Below, in pieces: positions 1,327-64,000 of a stretch of 64,000 nucleotides of DNA. The stretch comes from a virus. The position numbers and the translations under genes are program-made. The stretch lies in IMG/VR virus record IMGVR_UViG_3300043409_000956, positions 29,093-93,092 of that record; one strand, written 5' to 3'. Positions within the stretch are counted from its first letter, which is position 1. Every line of letters starts with the position of its first letter. The notes under the pieces were generated by a model. It had not been told where the DNA came from. It worked only from the letters and a program-made list of their open reading frames with translations, and made no database searches.

Positions 1327-3606
1327 ATGATGACAATCCAACCGAATCCCGAAATTGAAGTAATTGTTAACTCAGCTATTAAATCAGCTAAAGAACTTAA
1401 CCACGAATATGTAACCCTTGAGCATCTACTCAAAGCGGTTGTGTTGTACAAGCCATTTTACGAGCTTTGTCAAAATTTTGGTGCCGATATTGACAGCATG
1501 GTAATCGAGTTACATCAATATCTTGTATCACAAACATATCTGGTCAGCACAGAGAATGGCTGCGAGCCAAAGAAAACACATGCCCTGGAGCGTATGTTTA
1601 ATCGTGCCTTTACACAGGTGTTGTTCAGTGGACGCACACACATACAAGTGATTGATATCTTCCTAAGTATGTCCAACGAGGCAAATAGTCATGCCGCATA
1701 CTTCATGCTCAAATACGGTCTGGATAGACAAAAGTTAATTGAATTTTATAATGAGAATTATCAAGAGTCCAAACAAGTAAAGGCCGCTCGCAAGTTGCGG
1801 ACACATGATGTACTTGATGAGTATTGTACCAACCTCAGTGAGTCTGCCGCGGCCGGCAACATTGATCCAGTGATTGGTCGTGAATTTGAGATTAACGAAA
1901 TAGCACAGGTCCTGGCCAAACGCAACAAGTCAAATATCTTAATGGTGGGTGATCCCGGTGTGGGTAAAACAGCCATTGCAGAAGGACTGGCAAGAAACAT
2001 CTTTAATAAAGAAGTGCCCGACTACCTACATGATTACACAGTATTCAATTTGGACATTGGCAGTATCCTGGCGGGCAGTAAATACCGCGGTGAGTTTGAA
2101 GAAAAAGTCAAAGACGTTATTGAAGCATTGATTGCACGTGGCAAGTGTATCCTGTTCATAGACGAGGCACATCAAATGCAGGGCGCAGGCTCAGGCAGTC
2201 AAAGTAGTGTGGACTTTGGTAACATGATCAAACCTGCACTGAGCAAGGGACAGATCAAAGTCATTGCAAGTACCACGTGGGAAGAATACTCACAGAGCTT
2301 TGAAAAGGATCGTGCGTTGATGCGTCGATTCCATAGACTGTCAATTGATGAACCTACTCCAGCAGTGGCCAAAGATATCTTGCGTGGCTTGCGTGGATAC
2401 TTTGAAGAGTTCCATGGCGGCATTATTGATGATACAGCCATTGAAAGTGCTGTTGATCTAAGTGTACGCTATCAAACCGACAAGCGCCTGCCCGACAAAG
2501 CAATTGACTTGATAGACAGCGCCTGTGCCAGAGTCAAGTTGGTAGAAAAAGAGTGGGTTGTGGCCAAGAGTCACATCATTGACACCCTGAGCAAGTTCAC
2601 AAAGATACCTGCAGATCAAATTGGTGCAGAAACTGTGCGTAGTTTAGATAACTTAGAAGGCAACATCAAAGCCAAGTTGTATGGACAGGAACAAGTTGTT
2701 GATACAATCTTAGAACGTATATATGTCAGCCGGGCAGGACTCAAAGGCATCAACAAACCCATTGGTAGTTTTCTATTCATTGGACCCACCGGCACAGGTA
2801 AAACTGAACTTGCTAAACTCCTGGCCGAAAACCTCGGGATGAAACTATTAAGATACGATATGAGTGAGTACCAAGAACGGCATTCGGCCAGCAAACTGAT
2901 CGGTGCACCCCCGGGGTATGTAGGCTATGAAGACAGCAACTTAGGTGGTGGCATGCTGATCAGCGATCTAGAAAAGAACACCAATGCAGTCATCTTGTTT
3001 GATGAAATTGAAAAAGCACACCCAGACGTTAGCAATGTACTACTACAGTTGATGGATGAAGGTACGATTACCTCGAGCAATGGCAAAAAAGCAGATGCAC
3101 GTAATGCCATCATCATCATGACCAGTAACTTGGGAGCCGCAGACAATGAACGTAACAGCATTGGATTTAGCTCACCGGAAAAAACTGGTGAAGACGACAA
3201 GGCTGTTAAGGAATTCTTTAAGCCTGAGTTCCGTAATCGCCTGGATGGTATTTGTAAGTTTAACCGACTAGATAAGTTAAGTATTAAGAAAGTAGTTGCC
3301 AAGTTCATTAACGAAGTCAACGACTTGTTAAGTGAAAAGACTATTAAGATTCGATTGACCGAGTCCGCTGTAGACTATTTGGCTGAAGTTGGATATGATA
3401 GCAAGATGGGTGCAAGACCACTAGGTCGTAAAATTAACGATTTGATCAAAGTACCGCTAAGTAAAAAGATACTATTTGAGCGTGTATCCCCAAATAGTAG
3501 TATTACTGTGGACTGGACTGGAACTGAATTTACATTCGATAGCAGAATTTGCATTGAAGCACCCCCCACTGTGGATGAGCATGGATACATCGTACTGGAA
3601 AAATAA
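1327..3606 (+). CDS. clpA: ATP-dependent Clp protease ATP-binding subunit ClpA
   Basis: Clp N-domain, two AAA+ modules (GDPGVGKT, GPTGTGKT), GAPPGYVGY, IGF loop (NSIGF), no ClpB middle domain. Confidence 0.95.
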   Translation: MMTIQPNPEIEVIVNSAIKSAKELNHEYVTLEHLLKAVVLYKPFYELCQNFGADIDSMVIELHQYLVSQTYLVSTENGCEPKKTHALERMFNRAFTQVLFSGRTHIQVIDIFLSMSNEANSHAAYFMLKYGLDRQKLIEFYNENYQESKQVKAARKLRTHDVLDEYCTNLSESAAAGNIDPVIGREFEINEIAQVLAKRNKSNILMVGDPGVGKTAIAEGLARNIFNKEVPDYLHDYTVFNLDIGSILAGSKYRGEFEEKVKDVIEALIARGKCILFIDEAHQMQGAGSGSQSSVDFGNMIKPALSKGQIKVIASTTWEEYSQSFEKDRALMRRFHRLSIDEPTPAVAKDILRGLRGYFEEFHGGIIDDTAIESAVDLSVRYQTDKRLPDKAIDLIDSACARVKLVEKEWVVAKSHIIDTLSKFTKIPADQIGAETVRSLDNLEGNIKAKLYGQEQVVDTILERIYVSRAGLKGINKPIGSFLFIGPTGTGKTELAKLLAENLGMKLLRYDMSEYQERHSASKLIGAPPGYVGYEDSNLGGGMLISDLEKNTNAVILFDEIEKAHPDVSNVLLQLMDEGTITSSNGKKADARNAIIIMTSNLGAADNERNSIGFSSPEKTGEDDKAVKEFFKPEFRNRLDGICKFNRLDKLSIKKVVAKFINEVNDLLSEKTIKIRLTESAVDYLAEVGYDSKMGARPLGRKINDLIKVPLSKKILFERVSPNSSITVDWTGTEFTFDSRICIEAPPTVDEHGYIVLEK

Positions 3607-6855: not shown

Positions 6856-7344
6856 ATGAAACCAACAGATTTTATTGTAGAACACAACCCATTTATAGCA
6901 CAAGATGCCAATGAAATGCACGGCGACCACGAAGTACAAATGGCCCGAGCTGATTGTTATAATGCCGCAGACTATGCCATCAAACTACATAAGATTTTGC
7001 AAGGTATAAAAGAGACTGGACAACTAGAAGGTTGGGTCAGCGAAAAGATCACCCTGGCCAACGACTACTTGCGTACTGTTTATGAGTACTTGAGTTACGA
7101 AAATCGTGAACAAGAATCGGGCGCAATGCCTGCGTTTGCTTATGAATCTGCTGATCGTCGATTTGAAGAAGTTGTGGCAGAGTCTGCCAGTATTGGTGCC
7201 AGTGTCTCAGGTGGTATGGCCATTGGTGCAGTAGGTTCCGCAACTCCCATGCAACGCCGTGTCAAGCAAGAGTCAGCTGCCACTAAAAAGTATGGCAACG
7301 CAATGAAAACAAAACAGCCCAAGATTGGTAAAGGCGTTTATTAA
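6856..7344 (+). CDS. probable virion (internal head) protein
   Basis: TAAATA motif upstream; MKPTDFIVE leader; DHEVQMAR...LEGWVSEKITLANDYL helical module; VAES site. Confidence 0.65.
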   Translation: MKPTDFIVEHNPFIAQDANEMHGDHEVQMARADCYNAADYAIKLHKILQGIKETGQLEGWVSEKITLANDYLRTVYEYLSYENREQESGAMPAFAYESADRRFEEVVAESASIGASVSGGMAIGAVGSATPMQRRVKQESAATKKYGNAMKTKQPKIGKGVY

Positions 7345-7976
7345 TGAGTATGCGTGATCTATTAACCCAGCTGTCAGCGTTGGAAGAAGGTTCCAAGGTT
7401 CGATTTGCCGGCGAGCCCAAACAACGGCCCGGCGATCAAGTGCGTGGCACAGATCGGGCCGTGGGTAAAAAAGGTCAACATCCATTTCAAAATCGCTTGG
7501 TTGGTGGTGAAAGCATCCTGCGTGATTTAGAAGCCGCATTGCACGAAACACCTGTTAGAGACTTGATGCGTGAGTATCAAGACTTTGTCAACGAAGCTCC
7601 TGTTCCTCCCGTGCCCGCTCCAGCAGGTCAACAACAAAATCCCAATCCCAATCCCAATCAACCAAATCAAGATCCAGCAATTTTAGCCGCACAGGCCAAA
7701 CTTGCACAACAACAAAAAACCAAACAAGATGCCGCATTGCAACAAGGTATCTCTAAATTAAAATCAGCTGGTGCTGATGTTGACATGCAGACCATGAATG
7801 ACAAAAACAATGATCTAGCGCCGGTATTAGCACCCATCATGAGCAACCCACAGCTACAAGGCAAATTCCAAGAATTAATCAAACAGGCCAATGCCGAGCA
7901 AAAGAAACAACAACAAGCACAACAGACTGCCGTGCCCGCAGGTGCTGTTGGCGCACCAGTTCCAGGACAGAAATAA
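7344..7976 (+). CDS. Gln/Pro-rich probable internal head protein
   Basis: LEE/VNE sites; low-complexity Q/P/A composition. Confidence 0.6.
   Translation: MSMRDLLTQLSALEEGSKVRFAGEPKQRPGDQVRGTDRAVGKKGQHPFQNRLVGGESILRDLEAALHETPVRDLMREYQDFVNEAPVPPVPAPAGQQQNPNPNPNQPNQDPAILAAQAKLAQQQKTKQDAALQQGISKLKSAGADVDMQTMNDKNNDLAPVLAPIMSNPQLQGKFQELIKQANAEQKKQQQAQQTAVPAGAVGAPVPGQK
7638..7658 (+). repeat. (AATCCC)3.5 tandem repeat encoding NPNPNPN
   Basis: Seen directly in sequence. Confidence 0.8.
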
Positions 7977-7977
7977 T

Positions 7978-10512
7978 ATGAACTTATACGACCTATCTCA
8001 TCCTAGCAAAAAGAAAAAACAACAACTAGCCATGGAAAGCCGCCTGGCTGAATTTGCACCACCTGGTGGAGATGATGGCGGTCCCGACGAAGATGAGATA
8101 CTATTCAAACTAGCCAAACAATGGTGGCTTGGCACTGAACAAGACATGATTCGTGTGGAACGCACACTAGCATCAATGGGTTGGGAAATTGGTGAAGATG
8201 AAGGCAGTTATGACGACGGTGGTGTGTTTGTTGTACGTGCCGGTGATGTCAACGGTAAAAGTTATCAGTCATGGCCGCATGAGGAATTAGTAACGGAAGG
8301 TGCCACGGTAACAACAACCCCTGGATCCGTTGAGCCAGGTGGTGCAGTAGACAACTTTAAACAACAGATGGCCAACAATACTGAACTTGCATATCAGAAA
8401 AAACAACAAGGCATGGCCGAAGGTGACACTGTAGTCAAACACCGTATCGGCCTAACTGTCACAGACCCCAACCACCCCATGGCGAGCAAGCGCAACGAAC
8501 CCTTTCAACGGACTGTGCGTGTGCCCGGCGATGATCCTGCCAAGGCCATCAATGCGGCCATTGCACACTATCGCCGCAAAGGTTACAAAGTGCATGACCA
8601 TCACTACATGGGCACAGTGGACTATACCATAGACGAAGCGGCACCCGATTGGTTGAGACGCACAGCCGGTGCGGCCACAGGTGCATTGGCCGGTGTTGGT
8701 GCAAGTTTCCCCGGTGCGGCCATTGCAGGTCCCATTGGTGGTGCAGTGGCAGGTGCATACGGAGCCAAAGCCGGATATGATTTAGGTGCCGATGCCGCTG
8801 ACTGGGTATATGACAAAGTCACTGGCGAACGAGTTCCGGCAGACAAGACCGAGGTTGATGAAGCATTAACAATGAAGCATCAGCGAGCTCATACAACTCA
8901 AAGACGCCCCGACATCAGCAATAGCCTGGCCGATAGAGACTTTGACATGTCAGAGAAACCCAATGTTGCCAAGAGTGCAGATGGTCACCCCACAGTCAAG
9001 TGGCGTCATCATGGCCATGCCGGACATACTAGAGTTGAGCCCACACTGAACCCGACCACAGTGCAACGCAAGGACACAAGACCCATACCATCTTTCTTGA
9101 AGAAAGGCATGGCGGAAGACGCAGAAAACTTTAACGGCATTGAGTTATCAATGAAGATACAACTCCAAGATGTTGAATATGTTGATGATGAAGATTATGA
9201 TAATCAAGTAATATATGTCACTGCTAGTAGCAACGGTAGGGAACTGGGGCATGTGTTATTTTCGTTTGATGGTGAGTATTTAATGCCTCAGGATTTAGAA
9301 GTAGAAGAAAAGTATCGTGGACAGGGCATTGCTCAAACAATGTATGATTATGTAAAGAGCAAAGGATATAAAATACGCCGCAGTGGACAACAAACTGATG
9401 CAGGCGCTGGATTTTGGGACAAACATAAACCTGGAAAAAATGTCTGGGAACAAGGTGTGGCGGAAGGCTCACTAAACGAATTTGCACCAGATGGCTTTAA
9501 CGGTGATGACGATGAAGGATTCAGTCCGGAAATTGCCAAGATGGCGTATGATGCTGGTAGTGTCAAGGGCGTGAGCCTTGCTGACGGTGCTACATTAGCC
9601 AGAGCAATGGCGATAACGGAGTGGGACAAACAAGACGGTGGCATTTACACCCAGCACTTTGCAAAAGGCTTCAAAGCAGGTCGTATGAATAAAATCAATC
9701 ACCACAATAAACAATACAATCTCAACTTGAAGTTGATGAAAGATGGTAGCATTAGACGCGGTCAGCAAGGTGTGGCGGAAGGTTCATTAGAAGAAGATGA
9801 ATATGATAAAATGCTAAGAGATTTGTTGAAGGCAAGACCTGACTTAACTAAAAAATATGCCAAAGATGTTCAAAAGTCAAAAGATATTGAAAGTGGCAAA
9901 GAGTTAAACAAACTTGTTAAAAAGAATCCTGGTGTATTGAAAACATACAGTGATGCTGTAAAGAGAGATAAGAAACTAGGTGTGGCGGAAGGTGGATACC
10001 GTCAAGGTTTTGCAGATCCCAACGCACCCAGTCTAGGTGGCAGTCGTAGAAAAGATGACGAAGGCAACTCAGAGTTTGATGACCGTCAGCGTAGACAAAC
10101 CGGAATGATATTCTACAAGGTTGACGACGCCGAACTAGCACAACAACTAGGACTCAAACAAACTCGTGCAGGCAAGTGGTATTTGCGTACAGGTAACAGA
10201 CATGCACAACAGACTGCTGACCGTGCATTTGGCCTGGGACGCATTTGGTATCCAAAGAATGAAACTGTAGAGTCAGAAGAGCTCGGCGAACTCAGCAATG
10301 AGTTGTTGGGTCGTTACAAAAAAGAACTAGGTATCCGTGCTAGTGCCGCAGATCGAGCAGGCAACTTTGACAAAGGTCACGAATACTTTAAAAAAATCAA
10401 CCGAGCAACTGTTCGCCAAGGTGATAATGATGCTCGCAGACACGCAGAAAAAGAAAACGATGTAATGGAAACTCGTTTAAATATGATGCGTAAGGCAGGA
10501 TACGATCTATGA
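7978..10512 (+). CDS. mosaic multi-module polyprotein with GVAEG/GMAEG linkers, includes a GNAT acetyltransferase module
   Basis: ATG 7978 after upstream stop; five G(V/M)AE(G/D) linkers; GNAT motif A (EKYRGQGIAQTMY); Gly-zipper segment. Confidence 0.8.
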   Translation: MNLYDLSHPSKKKKQQLAMESRLAEFAPPGGDDGGPDEDEILFKLAKQWWLGTEQDMIRVERTLASMGWEIGEDEGSYDDGGVFVVRAGDVNGKSYQSWPHEELVTEGATVTTTPGSVEPGGAVDNFKQQMANNTELAYQKKQQGMAEGDTVVKHRIGLTVTDPNHPMASKRNEPFQRTVRVPGDDPAKAINAAIAHYRRKGYKVHDHHYMGTVDYTIDEAAPDWLRRTAGAATGALAGVGASFPGAAIAGPIGGAVAGAYGAKAGYDLGADAADWVYDKVTGERVPADKTEVDEALTMKHQRAHTTQRRPDISNSLADRDFDMSEKPNVAKSADGHPTVKWRHHGHAGHTRVEPTLNPTTVQRKDTRPIPSFLKKGMAEDAENFNGIELSMKIQLQDVEYVDDEDYDNQVIYVTASSNGRELGHVLFSFDGEYLMPQDLEVEEKYRGQGIAQTMYDYVKSKGYKIRRSGQQTDAGAGFWDKHKPGKNVWEQGVAEGSLNEFAPDGFNGDDDEGFSPEIAKMAYDAGSVKGVSLADGATLARAMAITEWDKQDGGIYTQHFAKGFKAGRMNKINHHNKQYNLNLKLMKDGSIRRGQQGVAEGSLEEDEYDKMLRDLLKARPDLTKKYAKDVQKSKDIESGKELNKLVKKNPGVLKTYSDAVKRDKKLGVAEGGYRQGFADPNAPSLGGSRRKDDEGNSEFDDRQRRQTGMIFYKVDDAELAQQLGLKQTRAGKWYLRTGNRHAQQTADRAFGLGRIWYPKNETVESEELGELSNELLGRYKKELGIRASAADRAGNFDKGHEYFKKINRATVRQGDNDARRHAEKENDVMETRLNMMRKAGYDL
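8407..9992 (+). repeat. dispersed linker repeat (CAA)GG(T/C)(G/A)TGGC(G/C)GAAG(G/A), 5 copies
   Basis: Copies at 8407, 9103, 9451, 9766, 9976; exact 14-mer GGTGTGGCGGAAGG at 9454, 9769, 9979. Confidence 0.85.
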
Positions 10513-10940
10513 CACTATCAGAAACTACAAAAATAGCATTTGCTAGCGAATATACCTTTTATTTGAAGGCACACAACTTTCACTGGAATGTGGAAGGTGC
10601 TGACTTCCTAGAACATCACCAGTTGTTTGGCATGATCTACGAAGAAGTATACGGTGCCATTGACGATTTTGCAGAAAAGATTCGCGGCATCGGTAGTTAT
10701 GTGCCAGCCAGCTACACCAGATTCAGTCAATTGAGTCAAATTGGTGACGAGACCAACATACTCAGCCCGGGTGCCATGTTGCATGAACTATCAGAAGACA
10801 ATGAAAAAATGTTGTTGGTACTGAAGATGGCTTATGATGCAGCCGAACAAGCCGGCGAGCATGGATTCTCAAACTTCTTAGCTGAACGGTTAGATGCACA
10901 TCGTAAACACGGTTGGATGTTGAGAGCAAGTCTAAAATAA
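10509..10940 (+). CDS. dps: Dps / ferritin-like DNA protection protein
   Basis: KAHNFHWNVEG..F...H.LF...YEE....D..AE.IR and HRKHGWML motifs. Confidence 0.93.
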   Translation: MTLSETTKIAFASEYTFYLKAHNFHWNVEGADFLEHHQLFGMIYEEVYGAIDDFAEKIRGIGSYVPASYTRFSQLSQIGDETNILSPGAMLHELSEDNEKMLLVLKMAYDAAEQAGEHGFSNFLAERLDAHRKHGWMLRASLK

Positions 10941-11641
10941 TGTTGCCCATCATAGCAACATTGGTGATGACACATATCACCATCATATGTGTCACAGTTT
11001 TCCTACACCGCGGACAAGCACATCGCGGATTGATATTTCATCCTGTACTTAGTCACTTTATGCGAGCCTGGCTTTGGCTAACAACCGGAATGGTCACTAA
11101 ACAATGGGTAGCCATACATCGTAAGCATCATAGGTTCAGTGATGTTGCGGGTGACCCACATAGCCCACACGTATATGGAATTGGACGAGTATTGTTTAAA
11201 GGAGCAATGTTATATCATGAAGCAAGCAAAGATACGGACATGGTTAATACATATGGTGCTGGTACTCCTGCTGATTGGATGGAGCTTCACGTATACCAGC
11301 CTTACTCTAGACTTGGCATTGGCATTCTCTTTGTGCTAGACGTCTTGGTGTTTGGATGGTGGGGTCCTGTAATTTGGGGCATCCAGATGATATGGATACC
11401 GTTTTGGGCAGCCGGAGTCATAAACGGCGTTGGTCATTGGATTGGGTATCGTAATGGTGAAACCAAAGATCATAGTCGTAACATCGTGCCTTGGGGCATT
11501 GTCGTTGGTGGAGAGGAGTTGCACAACAATCACCACCTGAACCCAGCAAGTCCCAGGCTCAGCAAGACCTGGTTTGAATTTGATGCAGGCTGGATGTACA
11601 TAAATATTTTTAAATCGCTTGGACTACTTAAAATTAAATGA
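10940..11641 (+). CDS. membrane fatty acid (acyl-CoA delta-9-type) desaturase
   Basis: His boxes HRGQAH, HRKHH, HNNHH; DPHSP; transmembrane segments. Confidence 0.92.
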   Translation: MLPIIATLVMTHITIICVTVFLHRGQAHRGLIFHPVLSHFMRAWLWLTTGMVTKQWVAIHRKHHRFSDVAGDPHSPHVYGIGRVLFKGAMLYHEASKDTDMVNTYGAGTPADWMELHVYQPYSRLGIGILFVLDVLVFGWWGPVIWGIQMIWIPFWAAGVINGVGHWIGYRNGETKDHSRNIVPWGIVVGGEELHNNHHLNPASPRLSKTWFEFDAGWMYINIFKSLGLLKIK

Positions 11642-51566: not shown

Positions 51567-52820
51567 ATGTCAGATGTAGTAGAAAAAGAAAAAGTAGTAA
51601 CAGTTACCAATCCAAAAACTGATGCCGCAGTTCGTGAAAAATTAATCACTGCTCGCATTGGACTCTTGCTCAAGGCTCCGTTCTTTGGTAATCTTGCAAC
51701 CCGCATGACCTTGGTCAATGCAGATGACTGGTGCCCCACTGCCGCAACAGACGGCCGCAAATTTTATTATAATTCAGAATTTGTAAACAAAATGCCACTC
51801 AAGCAGGTGGAATTCTTAGTGGGACACGAAGTGCTACATGCGGTGTATGACCATATGGGTCGTACCGGAGATCGCGATCGCAAAATTATGAACATTGCGG
51901 CAGACTATTGTGTTAATGCTGACTTGATTGAGCAACGCATTGGTGAGAAGATCACTGTATGTGGTATGTTGTACGATCCCAAGTACAAAGGCTGGAGCAT
52001 GGAAGAAGTCTATGATGACTTGATGAAGAATGCCAACAAAATTGATATTGGCAAACTGGCCCAAATGGTCTTGGACGAGCACTTGGATGGTGAAGGCGAG
52101 GGAGAAGGCGACAGTAAAGACGGCAAGGGTCGCCCTAAACTAAGCGAAGCTGAACGCAAGGCCATCAAAGACGAGATCAAAGAGGCTGTACTACAAGCCG
52201 CTCAGGCCGCTGGTGCTGGTAACTTGCCCGGTGGTGTTAGACGCATGATCAAGGACTTGACAGAACCCATGATTGGTTGGAAAGAATTGTTGGAGCAACA
52301 AATTCAAAGTACTATCAAGAACGACTTTACATTTGCTCGCCCTAGTCGTAAAGGTTGGCACATGGATGCCATCATGCCTGGCATGAAGCCTGGAGAAACT
52401 ATCGATATCTTTATTGGCATTGACACATCTGGTAGTATCGGTCCAGAAGATTTAAAAATCTTCTTTAGCGAGATCAAAGGTATCATGGATAGTTATACTG
52501 AGTACAAGATACATGTTGTAGGTTGGGATACTGAGATTGGTGGTGTTGGTGAGTTTACTAGCGACAACATGGCAGACATTACCGAGTTTGACCCTTTGGG
52601 TGGTGGTGGCACTGATCCCATGTGCGTGTGGCAGTACCTGCGTGAAAACAACATAGAACCCAAGAAGTTGATCATGTTCACTGACTATTGTTTCTTTGGA
52701 TGGGAGCCTAGTACAGTTGAAAACTATTGCGATACAGTTTGGATTATCAAAGGTAACCCCAGTGCTGAACCTGAGTTTGGTGTGTGGGCACACTACGAAG
52801 AAGCCGCAAAAGGAAAATAA
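51567..52820 (+). CDS. metallopeptidase-VWA domain protein (DUF2201-like)
   Basis: TAATDG, HEVLH (HExxH), NIAADY, MIDAS DTSGS, GGGGTD, FTD. Confidence 0.88.
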   Translation: MSDVVEKEKVVTVTNPKTDAAVREKLITARIGLLLKAPFFGNLATRMTLVNADDWCPTAATDGRKFYYNSEFVNKMPLKQVEFLVGHEVLHAVYDHMGRTGDRDRKIMNIAADYCVNADLIEQRIGEKITVCGMLYDPKYKGWSMEEVYDDLMKNANKIDIGKLAQMVLDEHLDGEGEGEGDSKDGKGRPKLSEAERKAIKDEIKEAVLQAAQAAGAGNLPGGVRRMIKDLTEPMIGWKELLEQQIQSTIKNDFTFARPSRKGWHMDAIMPGMKPGETIDIFIGIDTSGSIGPEDLKIFFSEIKGIMDSYTEYKIHVVGWDTEIGGVGEFTSDNMADITEFDPLGGGGTDPMCVWQYLRENNIEPKKLIMFTDYCFFGWEPSTVENYCDTVWIIKGNPSAEPEFGVWAHYEEAAKGK

Positions 52821-62021: not shown

Positions 62022-63998
62022 AAATGCCACAGCCTTGTTGATATCTTCTCGTGTGAACCGTTTCAATTCACCGCGCTGTACCAACTGTTGAATATCTGCT
62101 AGATCAAGGTCTGCGTATTGGGTTTCAAAGCCGCCTGTGACATCTTCACCCACCAGGGCTTCTTCACTGTCAAATCGACCGCGGCAGTCATATGCTGACC
62201 CATCTGAGGCAACCGTGTACACATGATCCACTCGATATTCATCATCTTCGGCCGTATCGTCTTCCCACCCCACATGAGCACGGATCTGCCACGCAGGGTG
62301 CAACATCTTCAGTGCAATGGCCATCACATGACAATGCCCGGCCATGTAGTCTTGGTCTTCGTTTACATTTTTTTTGACTTGTCTCAATGTGTATGTGACC
62401 TGGCCGGTGCGGTGATGTTGCCGAACCTGGTAACCCATGGCGCTGGCATAACGATTGACCATTCTATCATACAGTTTGGCACGACTTTCAGGATTTATAT
62501 TGGTACCGTATGGCGCCATGTCCACTTGGGGATCTTTACTGGCTGAGAATTCAATTGATTCAGGATTGTGTGCGTGAACAAATTGTCGAATAGCCGACAG
62601 CACTGTGGCAAACACTTCTTGTGCATTGCCTGCACCTGTGACTTCTTGGCTGTTGCCTCTCCAGAAGCTGACTGACCAGTCTGTGGGTGAGTCATTTGTC
62701 CAGGCCTCGGGCTCAAACATCACACTTAGTGCGGTGCCGTCTGACAATCGGGCAATGGCGTCAACTGCTTCACTTTCTTCACTTTGTTCCCAGTCAATAC
62801 CTCTGGGTTGATCAAAGGCTTCTGTTATGCCTGTGCTCCGGCGTACCCCAAATTCAAAATTTTCATCGCCGGGGTTGTATCCTTTAATGAACTTGTAATA
62901 ATATTCTTCTGCCTGTGCAGGTGTGTTGGCTTCGAAACGATCAATGACACGAGCAGGATTATTGACATCATATATTTCATAATTCTTGTTCAGGCGTTCA
63001 CGAGCTTGACTCATGCGGTCCAATCTGCGACTGATTTGACGGTCTGATCGACTTAGATAATTTTGCAGTAACCGGTCACTGATTTCGTTCAGCTCTTCGC
63101 CCATGGTCTTTTGAACCGGCCGCCAGTGGAACACAGTCATGCCCATGTTGGGATATTCTTCGTGCGCCCACTTTGCGCCTAATATGTCCTGTATCACCGG
63201 AACAAAATACTTGCGATACAAGCCGGCACGATTATCTTCCTTGGCTGTAAATGATATGCCGGGAGGACGAGATTTTTTAATATATTCTGGTAATCGTTGT
63301 TTGACCACATTGAGAACTGTGCTCAATATTTTGACAGTACTCTTGCTGGCACTTGTGGGCCGACTAGGTGTGTCATAGTTGCCATTCACAGTGAATGTAA
63401 TGTGTAAGGTGTCGTTAAACTCACTGCGGTCAAAGAACACATCTACCCACTGATTGTCCACTGTGGCATGAAACAGGCTATTTTTTCTTTTGCGATTGGC
63501 TTTGTAGTCAGCAGGTGCGTTGCCTAGTTCGTTGATCTGATCTTCTGCCACAGCAGGTTCTTGCTTGGGTTGTTTGACTGGTTTCTGTATTTGTGTCAGC
63601 GTATAGGTTGCGCCACCAGGATAATCTTGTCTTGTCAAATTGTAACCGGTGCCGCTGATATAGCGTTGAATCATTCTATCATACAGTCGAGCTCTACTGC
63701 CTGTGGGGTCGTCTTCTTTTTCTGCGCTAAAATTCAACATTGCTGGTTTACGCTTGGCAATAAATTGCCGCATGGCCGTCAGCACAGTGGCAAACACTCG
63801 CTGGGCATCGCCTTCTCCGGTGATCTCCATGTTTTCATCACGCTCAAATTCCACCATCCACTGGTTGTCGCCTTGAGACATGAACAGCACAATTAACTCA
63901 CTGCCGTCATCTAAATCGGCTGTGGCATGCCAGTCACCATTTGTTTTGGTCCATTGTATAGCGTAAGGTTGATCAAAGGCTTCGGACAGCTCTGTTTC
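62001..63998 (-). CDS. multi-module polyprotein, 5' end outside window; three related domains plus a Cys-His-Asp module
   Basis: Frame stays open to the window edge (ETELSEAFDQPY...); repeated EAFDQP...TG.G.AQ.VFATVL...FSA.K...SRA.LYDRM. Confidence 0.8.
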   Translation of the reverse strand, partial: ETELSEAFDQPYAIQWTKTNGDWHATADLDDGSELIVLFMSQGDNQWMVEFERDENMEITGEGDAQRVFATVLTAMRQFIAKRKPAMLNFSAEKEDDPTGSRARLYDRMIQRYISGTGYNLTRQDYPGGATYTLTQIQKPVKQPKQEPAVAEDQINELGNAPADYKANRKRKNSLFHATVDNQWVDVFFDRSEFNDTLHITFTVNGNYDTPSRPTSASKSTVKILSTVLNVVKQRLPEYIKKSRPPGISFTAKEDNRAGLYRKYFVPVIQDILGAKWAHEEYPNMGMTVFHWRPVQKTMGEELNEISDRLLQNYLSRSDRQISRRLDRMSQARERLNKNYEIYDVNNPARVIDRFEANTPAQAEEYYYKFIKGYNPGDENFEFGVRRSTGITEAFDQPRGIDWEQSEESEAVDAIARLSDGTALSVMFEPEAWTNDSPTDWSVSFWRGNSQEVTGAGNAQEVFATVLSAIRQFVHAHNPESIEFSASKDPQVDMAPYGTNINPESRAKLYDRMVNRYASAMGYQVRQHHRTGQVTYTLRQVKKNVNEDQDYMAGHCHVMAIALKMLHPAWQIRAHVGWEDDTAEDDEYRVDHVYTVASDGSAYDCRGRFDSEEALVGEDVTGGFETQYADLDLADIQQLVQRGELKRFTREDINKAVAFAKRIQQ

Positions 63999-64000
63999 TC

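Follow-up and report, generated by a model that had tools for sequence, protein, structure and literature searches.

Proteins of the polymorphic toxin, contact-dependent inhibition (CDI) and Rhs systems carry one variable C-terminal toxin each and are accompanied by immunity genes and orphan cassettes. An analogy between such systems and the polyvalent proteins of phages has been drawn (PMC5512222). In phage T4, gp21 cleaves the capsid targeting sequence (CTS), a sequence that brings foreign proteins into the head (PMC9026906, PMC3012670), and a related protease of giant phages, gp245, cuts after A-X-E (PMC10052503). For conserved motifs of tail-fibre genes, PMC3157838 cites Tetart et al. (1996, 1998). 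The subject here is a 64,000-nucleotide stretch of viral DNA (the window), which forms the final 64 kb of a 93-kb IMG/VR virus record (IMGVR_UViG_3300043409_000956), and a short linker, (E/K/Q)-Q-G-V-A-E↓G (the arrow marks the putative cut), between modules of its polyproteins. The 14-mer GGTGTGGCGGAAGG would be the DNA core of this standard linker joining unrelated small cargo modules, and on balance the linker appears to have a dual role, as a probable cut site of the head protease and as a short-homology exchange point for the modules.

A sequence-only reading of the window had placed exact copies of the 14-mer at 9454, 9769, 9979 and, on the opposite strand, 60003-60016. All four are confirmed (9454-9467, 9769-9782 and 9979-9992, plus strand; 60003-60016, minus strand), and each encodes an in-frame G-V-A-E-G in a long open reading frame (ORF). 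No further exact copy was found across the whole 93-kb record, and the four copies share no flanking DNA identity outside the motif. At two mismatches or fewer, GGTGTGGCGGAAGG has 6 matches against 0.26 expected, and none of 100 shuffles gave 6. The same reading listed variants, of which those at 8407, 9103 and 60218, each 3-4 bases off the 18-base consensus, hold, as does a weak one at 63540, whereas the one at 61257-61273 was rejected as a linker: it reads D-V-A-K-R and forms part of the repeat that precedes the MKIKDIIVES leader on its upstream side. Of the first three variants, two keep a rare NCG codon (GCG or ACG), the copy at 8407 having GCC; ACG, found in the variant at 60218, accounts for 5% of Thr codons. 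The linker sites are as follows.

8407-8424 (linker proper 8410..8424), plus strand: Q-GMAEG variant, CAA GGC ATG GCC GAA GGT
9103-9120 (linker proper 9106..9120), plus strand: K-GMAED variant, AAA GGC ATG GCG GAA GAC, preceding the GNAT module
9454..9468, plus strand: Q-GVAEG linker with exact core, at the boundary of the GNAT module and module 5
9769..9783, plus strand: Q-GVAEG linker with exact core, at the boundary of modules 5 and 6
9979..9993, plus strand: L-GVAEG linker with exact core, preceding the C-terminal module
60002..60016, minus strand: P-GVAEG linker with exact core, 50 kb from the others
60218-60235 (linker proper 60218..60232), minus strand: Q-GMTEG variant, GGC ATG ACG GAA GGC
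63540-63557, minus strand: PAVAED, a weaker copy, 6 of 18 bases off the consensus

All four GVAE sites of the window are written GGT GTG GCG GAA. In the 121 ORFs of the record, these codons take shares of 0.42, 0.24, 0.09 and 0.75, respectively, and the chance that four GVAE sites share any single codon set is 9e-6. The sequence-only reading had held that synonymous positions are fixed although selection on the protein does not call for it, and had proposed a codon count against background; the count bears the claim out, with GCG at 9% of Ala and GTG at 24% of Val in the background and yet all four sites in agreement. The relatives' loci, which were fetched by protein similarity to three different modules and not by the motif, carry the same signature. 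The 12-mer GGTGTGGCGGAA stands at 68 of 105 unique GVAE sites in these loci, where 0.5% is expected (P ~1e-127). Over 106 sites, the linker codons GGT, GTG, GCG and GAA reach 0.94, 0.88, 0.85 and 0.83, compared with 0.43, 0.22, 0.07 and 0.80 outside linkers in the same ORFs, and the codon before the linker core is CAA at most sites. Information content is at background by -7 and +15, leaving a conserved stretch of ~20 nt (-6 to +14), and no dyad, attC-like flanks or conserved flanking sequence was found around the linker in the fetched loci. With one mismatch or none, the 14-mer has 99 unique copies in the first 170 loci fetched (L001-L170) and the record itself; 98 of them are read in frame within ORFs 150 codons or longer, and none is non-coding. 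At least 120 IMG/VR contigs contain the 17-mer CAAGGTGTGGCGGAAGG, often in several copies over a few hundred bases, and a genome carries about 4-10 copies of the motif, each in frame in a polyprotein gene.

Several causes of this codon lock were considered and rejected. Codon-pair or dipeptide context does not produce it, because outside linkers only 6% of Ala codons before Glu (n=829) are GCG and 31% of Val codons before Ala are GTG. Internal translation start at the GTG or ATG of the linker is not supported either, as no Shine-Dalgarno sequence lies at usable spacing and ~10% of sites use GTA. Concerted evolution within genomes would give an excess of identical linkers within loci, and there is none (identical-linker pairs, 0.43 within loci and 0.44 between loci). 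A second linker type, L-x-E↓F-A-P(P/D)G, is encoded by a uniform sequence of its own, GAATTTGCaCC, with the common GCA for Ala at 79%; therefore, no general rule of rare Ala codons applies to linkers. Each linker type has one DNA form.

The modules on the two sides of the linker differ between relatives. In comparison with the nearest relative, locus L025, the DNA of the window is 92% identical over 8050-9118, where the identity ends inside the KGMAED linker; the two are unrelated from 9118 to 9974 and again 84-86% identical from the linker at 9979 on, and between those points L025 holds four other modules, each bounded by QGVAEG. When 51 polyprotein ORFs were compared with one another by blastn, 109 of 245 internal right-hand match ends (44%) fell within 15 nt of the linker cut, against 5.7% expected, and the left-hand ends peaked at -15 to -24, which is the linker start. 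Among 466 unique linker sites from 211 loci, the 336 pairs of linkers that share a neighbour share the left module only in 170 cases, the right only in 160 and both in just 6 (50, 36 and 3, respectively, in an unbiased subset); the modules on the two sides are near linkage equilibrium. Position by position, sites that share the left module show excess identity up to base -1, and sites that share the right module show it from +12/13 on. Neither neighbour is linked to the 12-base core, which is therefore itself the exchange zone. For a comparison of silent-site identity in linker and flank among pairs sharing both neighbours, just 3 pairs were usable. Where modules are shared, their proteins are down to 65-90% identity and their silent sites are saturated, and the linker is still identical.

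Lake metagenomes, as contigs assembled from mixed communities, show the same junctions. Many contigs from four lake runs match the window solely across 9450-9471 or 9762-9783, and loose contig ends lie at 9449-9452 and, in three runs, at 9779-9783. A contig of run X3 tracks the window to 8301, the end of an L-V-T-E codon run, continues with 152 other letters and rejoins at 9447, and other lake contigs join 8606 to 9451 via other sequence. Junction variation among relatives (L025, blastn ends, neighbour pairs and lake contigs) thus maps to the motif, and the recombination joint suspected from the window alone is found to the nucleotide, module content differing between relatives at the linker. 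Exchange of modules at the linker is very likely.

The polyproteins in which the linkers lie, with their other junctions, are the following.

7978..10512, plus strand: polyprotein 1, 844 amino acids from the ATG at 7978, about eight unrelated modules including a GNAT acetyltransferase
8044-8064, plus strand: second junction type, R-L-A-E↓F-A-P-P
8290..8301, plus strand: L-V-T-E↓G, a hydrophobic-x-Glu junction of another type
9118..9453, plus strand: GNAT acetyltransferase module, with a differing neighbour on each side in almost every relative
9469..9489, plus strand: second junction type (L-x-E↓FAP), S-L-N-E↓F-A-P
59516..61246, minus strand: polyprotein 2, 576 amino acids
61243..62004, minus strand: two-module gene, an unknown module, K-L-T-E↓G and ParB_N, with a (M)KIKDIIVE↓S leader
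62001..64000, minus strand: polyprotein 3, DUF6934 repeats, running off the contig end
62817-62831, minus strand: polyprotein 3 junction G-I-T-E↓A-F-D-Q-P
63540-63554, minus strand: polyprotein 3 junction A-V-A-E↓D

The longest ORF for polyprotein 1 starts at 7891 but overlaps the upstream gene. In Pfam, GNAT alone is matched, and weakly. A search of 5.8 billion proteins with polyprotein 1 gave 608 matches, nearly all of which cover just 10-45% of it, at 60-94% identity, in proteins of other lengths, and the best 120 of the 608 contain 190 GVAEG motifs. BLASTP block ends cluster at the linkers of polyprotein 1 (starts at residues 374-375; ends at 496-501, 104 and 214), and partner domains among its relatives include dCMP deaminase, NUDIX, cytidylyltransferase, RelA/SpoT-HD, chitinase-LysM, methyltransferase and DUF6934. 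One match, P0004, is a clean deletion form. Matches P0005, P0007 and P0010 have junctions reading AEGMAEG or AEGVAEG, like one and a half linkers, and these look like what out-of-register exchange between linkers would leave. At the second junction type, L025 carries an extra module between two L-x-E↓F-A-P sites. A hydrophobic stretch rich in Gly and Ala, GAATGALAGVGASFPGAAIAGPIGGAVAGAYGAKAG, lies in module 3 (8640-8780, plus strand) and may be a membrane-active segment or a glycine zipper.

Polyprotein 2 consists, in order, of a (M)KIKDIIVE↓S leader, a large module, Q-GMTEG, a small module, P-GVAEG, an acidic module and a basic C-terminal tail of ~60 residues (FADGKNPGRKGL...KARKK, residues 515-576, 59519-59704, minus strand). 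The tail, which may serve in DNA binding or packaging, recurs at 73-95% identity (mostly 84-95%) in polyproteins that are otherwise unrelated, and in most loci it forms their extreme C-terminus. Both halves of the 'ParB' gene at 61243..62004 likewise occur separately inside polyproteins of other phages. A Pfam search at E <= 0.01 found no peptidase family in the three window polyproteins, in which modules of unknown fold remain, and blastn of the locus against a phage GenBank collection gave no match.

The sequence-only reading had also suggested that the linker doubles as a protease site, and this agrees with the form of the junctions and with the gene content of relatives. The T4-type prohead protease follows a hydrophobic-x-Glu rule, with which V-A-E↓G, M-A-E↓G, M-T-E↓G, L-T-E↓G and I-T-E↓A agree. 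A Peptidase_S77/gp21-type prohead protease (PF03420) is present in three relatives, G001, G002 and G004, at E 1e-26 to 1e-29, and its gene adjoins those of a scaffold-like protein packed with [LIVM]-x-E sites and of a gp23-type capsid protein (E 7e-99), the propeptide of which ends M-L-A-E↓N. Neither PF03420 nor gp23 was found in the window's own record, which is 26% complete (CheckV). The putative leaders and the genes that carry them are as follows.

6856..7976, plus strand: two genes upstream of polyprotein 1 with T4-CTS-like motifs, the N-terminal parts of which head other polyproteins elsewhere
6856-6885, plus strand: MKPTDFIVE↓H, heading ORF 6856, once in the window
7566-7598, plus strand: MREYQDFVNE↓A, in ORF 7344-7976, ending a leader module of ~81-84 residues
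61218-62021, minus strand: (M)KIKDIIVE↓S, heading two adjacent genes

T4 IPII and IPIII start MKTYQEFIAE↓A (read from AF158101), and MREYQDFVNE↓A is identical to the T4 CTS at 6 of 11 residues, with 3 conservative changes. All three window leaders resemble the CTS, and the likeness is taken as resemblance only. Upstream of both genes headed by (M)KIKDIIVE↓S lies a near-identical repeat that includes the ribosome-binding site. The segment of ~81-84 residues recurs as the N-terminal leader of polyproteins of 355-733 amino acids, once directly before KQGVAEG, and may be a long targeting propeptide. Polyprotein 1 itself starts MNLYDL..., with R-L-A-E↓F at residue 25. From these sites and leaders, it is quite likely that the linker is cut by the head protease.

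By sequence, the source is a ~350-kb T4-type jumbo phage of lakes, of which the record holds 26%. The sequencing runs that carry the stretch are lake and freshwater metagenomes. The family-B DNA polymerase (polB) of the window is 83% identical to, and syntenic with, that of G001, an IMG/VR record of 354 kb (98% complete) in which the polymerase adjoins a polyprotein with four exact 14-mers. A RecA/UvsX-like gene is present in G001 and in one partial relative. Tyrosine recombinase (PF00589) is absent from the window's record, from G001 and from two partial relatives, of 60% and 43% completeness; serine recombinase (PF00239) was found in none of these three relatives, and no recombinase- or nickase-type gene is conserved beside the polyprotein loci examined. 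Other genes in the window (1327-3606, 10509-11641 and 51567-52820, plus strand) code for a ClpB-like double AAA+ chaperone, a Dps/ferritin-like protein and a DUF2201 metallopeptidase-VWA protein, and the Dps/ferritin-like gene is followed by a likely fatty-acid desaturase, with His-box motifs seen by eye.

Taken together, these data suggest the following course for the linker system, which would belong to a clade of freshwater T4-type jumbo phages. The polyprotein would enter the prohead by means of T4-CTS-like leaders or leader modules, the prohead protease would then cut it into separate modules, and the freed modules would be ejected with the DNA to act in the host as takeover or counter-defence effectors. 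Between genes and between phages, modules would be gained, lost and replaced by crossovers within the 12-base core, each product remaining in frame and retaining a cut site. The likeliest route would be short-homology recombination during co-infection, by annealing, template switching or a phage UvsX/RecA-type system; this route is the simplest because there is no site-specific recombinase and no dyad, and a recA/uvsX-like gene is present. The codon lock would then be both the means and a by-product of constant exchange: most junctions would be young recombinants from a common linker, and linkers that drift would leave the exchange pool. That short-homology recombination causes the lock seems to us somewhat more probable than not.

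Five points weigh against this account. First, the consensus is global and not lineage-specific, which is as compatible with direct selection on the exact DNA or RNA as with a shared exchange pool. Second, selection alone would also leave breakpoints between domains, so that the mapping of breakpoints is by itself no proof of guidance by homology. Third, in the contigs from mixed communities, no recombination event within one population was seen. Fourth, an identity of 12-20 nt is short for efficient RecA/UvsX-type exchange. Fifth, the protease and capsid genes are missing from the 26% fragment that includes the window, and hence their presence in this phage is inferred from relatives.

A different view of the lock, which we hold only tentatively, is that the linker is an evolved 'assembly standard', a dual-coded word common to a community of giant phages and kept identical in order that modules can be plugged in across phages. 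Each insertion would arrive in frame with its own release site, perhaps with help from an enzyme that nicks specifically at the motif or from a recombination hotspot of the host, and the outcome would be combinatorial shuffling of effectors inside genes, a functional counterpart of the integron with a different mechanism.

Selection on mRNA or translation is an unlikely cause of the lock. According to this explanation, the silent positions would be fixed as a pause, made by rare codons or a Shine-Dalgarno-like AAGGUG, that aids folding of the upstream module, or as an RNA-processing signal, and swaps would seem confined to linkers because recombinants elsewhere are non-functional. Indeed, GCG and ACG are rare codons, the AGGTG within the consensus CAAGGTGTGG is able to pair with the 3′ end of 16S rRNA, and a consensus that is the same in all lineages without within-locus excess is what direct selection predicts. 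However, the lock is no looser at the common codons GGT and CAA than at the rare codons, Ala in the second linker type is held to GCA, a common codon, no dipeptide-context bias appears elsewhere, and there are no conserved flanks able to form structure. Especially, the exchange edges are sharp to a single base on both sides of the 12-nt core, and filtering of random breaks predicts otherwise.

A dedicated DNA enzyme acting on the motif, be it a site-specific recombinase, a nicking or homing endonuclease, or a Chi-like hotspot of the host, is improbable. T4-type phages carry many homing endonucleases, the same word of ~17-20 nt is found across at least 120 viral contigs, and exchange is confined to it. 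Nevertheless, the word is short, without dyad symmetry or conserved flanks, and numbers just ~4-10 per genome, every copy lying in frame in a polyprotein gene; neither tyrosine nor serine recombinase was found in the 98%-complete relative or the two partial ones, and no such gene is conserved beside the examined polyprotein loci. For the same reasons (no tyrosine or serine recombinase, ~20 nt without dyad or attC-like flanks, and copies in coding frame), the integron-like, site-specific mechanism proposed in the sequence-only reading is not upheld. The search for a linked recombinase that it called for yielded no PF00589 in the record and three relatives, and a RecA/UvsX-like gene in two relatives. 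A dedicated site-specific enzyme is therefore less likely than short-homology recombination.

It is equally improbable that the linkers are identical merely because they all derive, recently, from one ancestral linker that spread along with duplicated modules: the variants GMAEG, GMAED and GMTEG, a few bases off the consensus, do indicate that linkers are homologous as DNA, but the flanking modules are mutually unrelated, and where flanks are shared they have diverged around an identical linker. As for the weaker version, assembly chimeras, a repeat of 14-20 nt is shorter than assembler k-mers (31-mers for Logan) and should be unable to seed them, the frames stay open, and the same mosaicism is seen in contigs from many studies.

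If short-homology exchange at a protease-cut linker is the true reading, giant T4-type phages hold a compact means of making new mixes of injected effectors, in which any module can be placed beside any other with frame and release site intact. This would explain a fast turnover of head-cargo repertoires in the arms race with host defences, and would be a clear case of one short sequence under joint constraint at the protein and DNA levels. The modules, hundreds of small and mostly unknown folds with boundaries marked by the linker, would form a catalogue of candidate anti-defence and takeover proteins, and linker and leader together point to a natural design by which T4-type capsids could be loaded with several proteins.

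One of the closest described counterparts is the set of internal proteins of T4 (IPI, IPII, IPIII), with Alt (PMC9026906, PMC3012670). Shared features are the gp21-type protease, gp22-like scaffold and gp23 capsid protein of the relatives, a putative cut after Glu in hydrophobic-x-Glu, and a diverse, fast-evolving cargo thought to counter host defences; the short N-terminal leaders here resemble MKTYQEFIAE↓A. In T4, however, each cargo protein has one gene and its own leader, whereas here up to ~10 unrelated modules stand in one frame, with a repeated internal linker, a putative cut site, fixed as DNA. Polyvalent proteins (Iyer, Burroughs, Anand, de Souza, Aravind 2017, PMC5512222) also combine many unrelated effector-type domains (GNAT, deaminase, NUDIX, ParB-like), are thought to enter the host with the DNA and show extensive mosaicism; multiple unrelated effector-type domains in one phage polypeptide are present here as well. 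They differ in that release is described as the work of embedded peptidase domains, none of which was found here, where a trans-acting head protease would take that part. The word 'linker' is absent from the main text of PMC5512222, and in that text no standard DNA-conserved linker was found described.

In the motif shuffling of T4-type phages, that is, promoter early stem-loop elements (PeSLs; PMC2839356, PMC4122927) and the glycine-rich motifs (GRMs) of gp38 and motifs of tail fibres (PMC3157838), short conserved DNA motifs flank hypervariable segments, and exchange takes place in or near them between related phages by general recombination and not by an integrase. Here too, a short conserved motif lies at the boundaries of variable segments with the exchange points there. 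PeSLs, however, are intergenic promoter-terminator units (early promoter and stem-loop) that move whole genes and are able to form mini-circles (PMC2839356), and GRMs are structural parts of a single adhesin domain, whereas the present motif is a coding, in-frame linker between domains, a putative protease site and a single universal word that many genes and phages have in common. Polymorphic toxin, CDI and Rhs cassettes are alike in that a conserved junction peptide and its DNA mark the exchange of variable modules by homologous recombination; in contrast to them, there are many serial cassettes per protein here, no immunity genes are seen and all motif copies are in an expressed frame. Integrons (IntI, attI, attC) share arrays of exchangeable cassettes bounded by a repeated site but differ in their integrase and folded attC site, which have no counterpart here, and in their promoterless gene cassettes, the cassettes here being translated in frame. 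Literature searches on the motif and on polyproteins cut by prohead proteases found no published account of the linker system. Its components are known in kind, namely CTS-targeted, gp21-processed cargo, polyvalent proteins and exchange at conserved T4-type motifs; the combination of serial in-frame cassettes, a universal dual-purpose linker fixed at silent sites and near-random neighbours across a phage community appears to be new.

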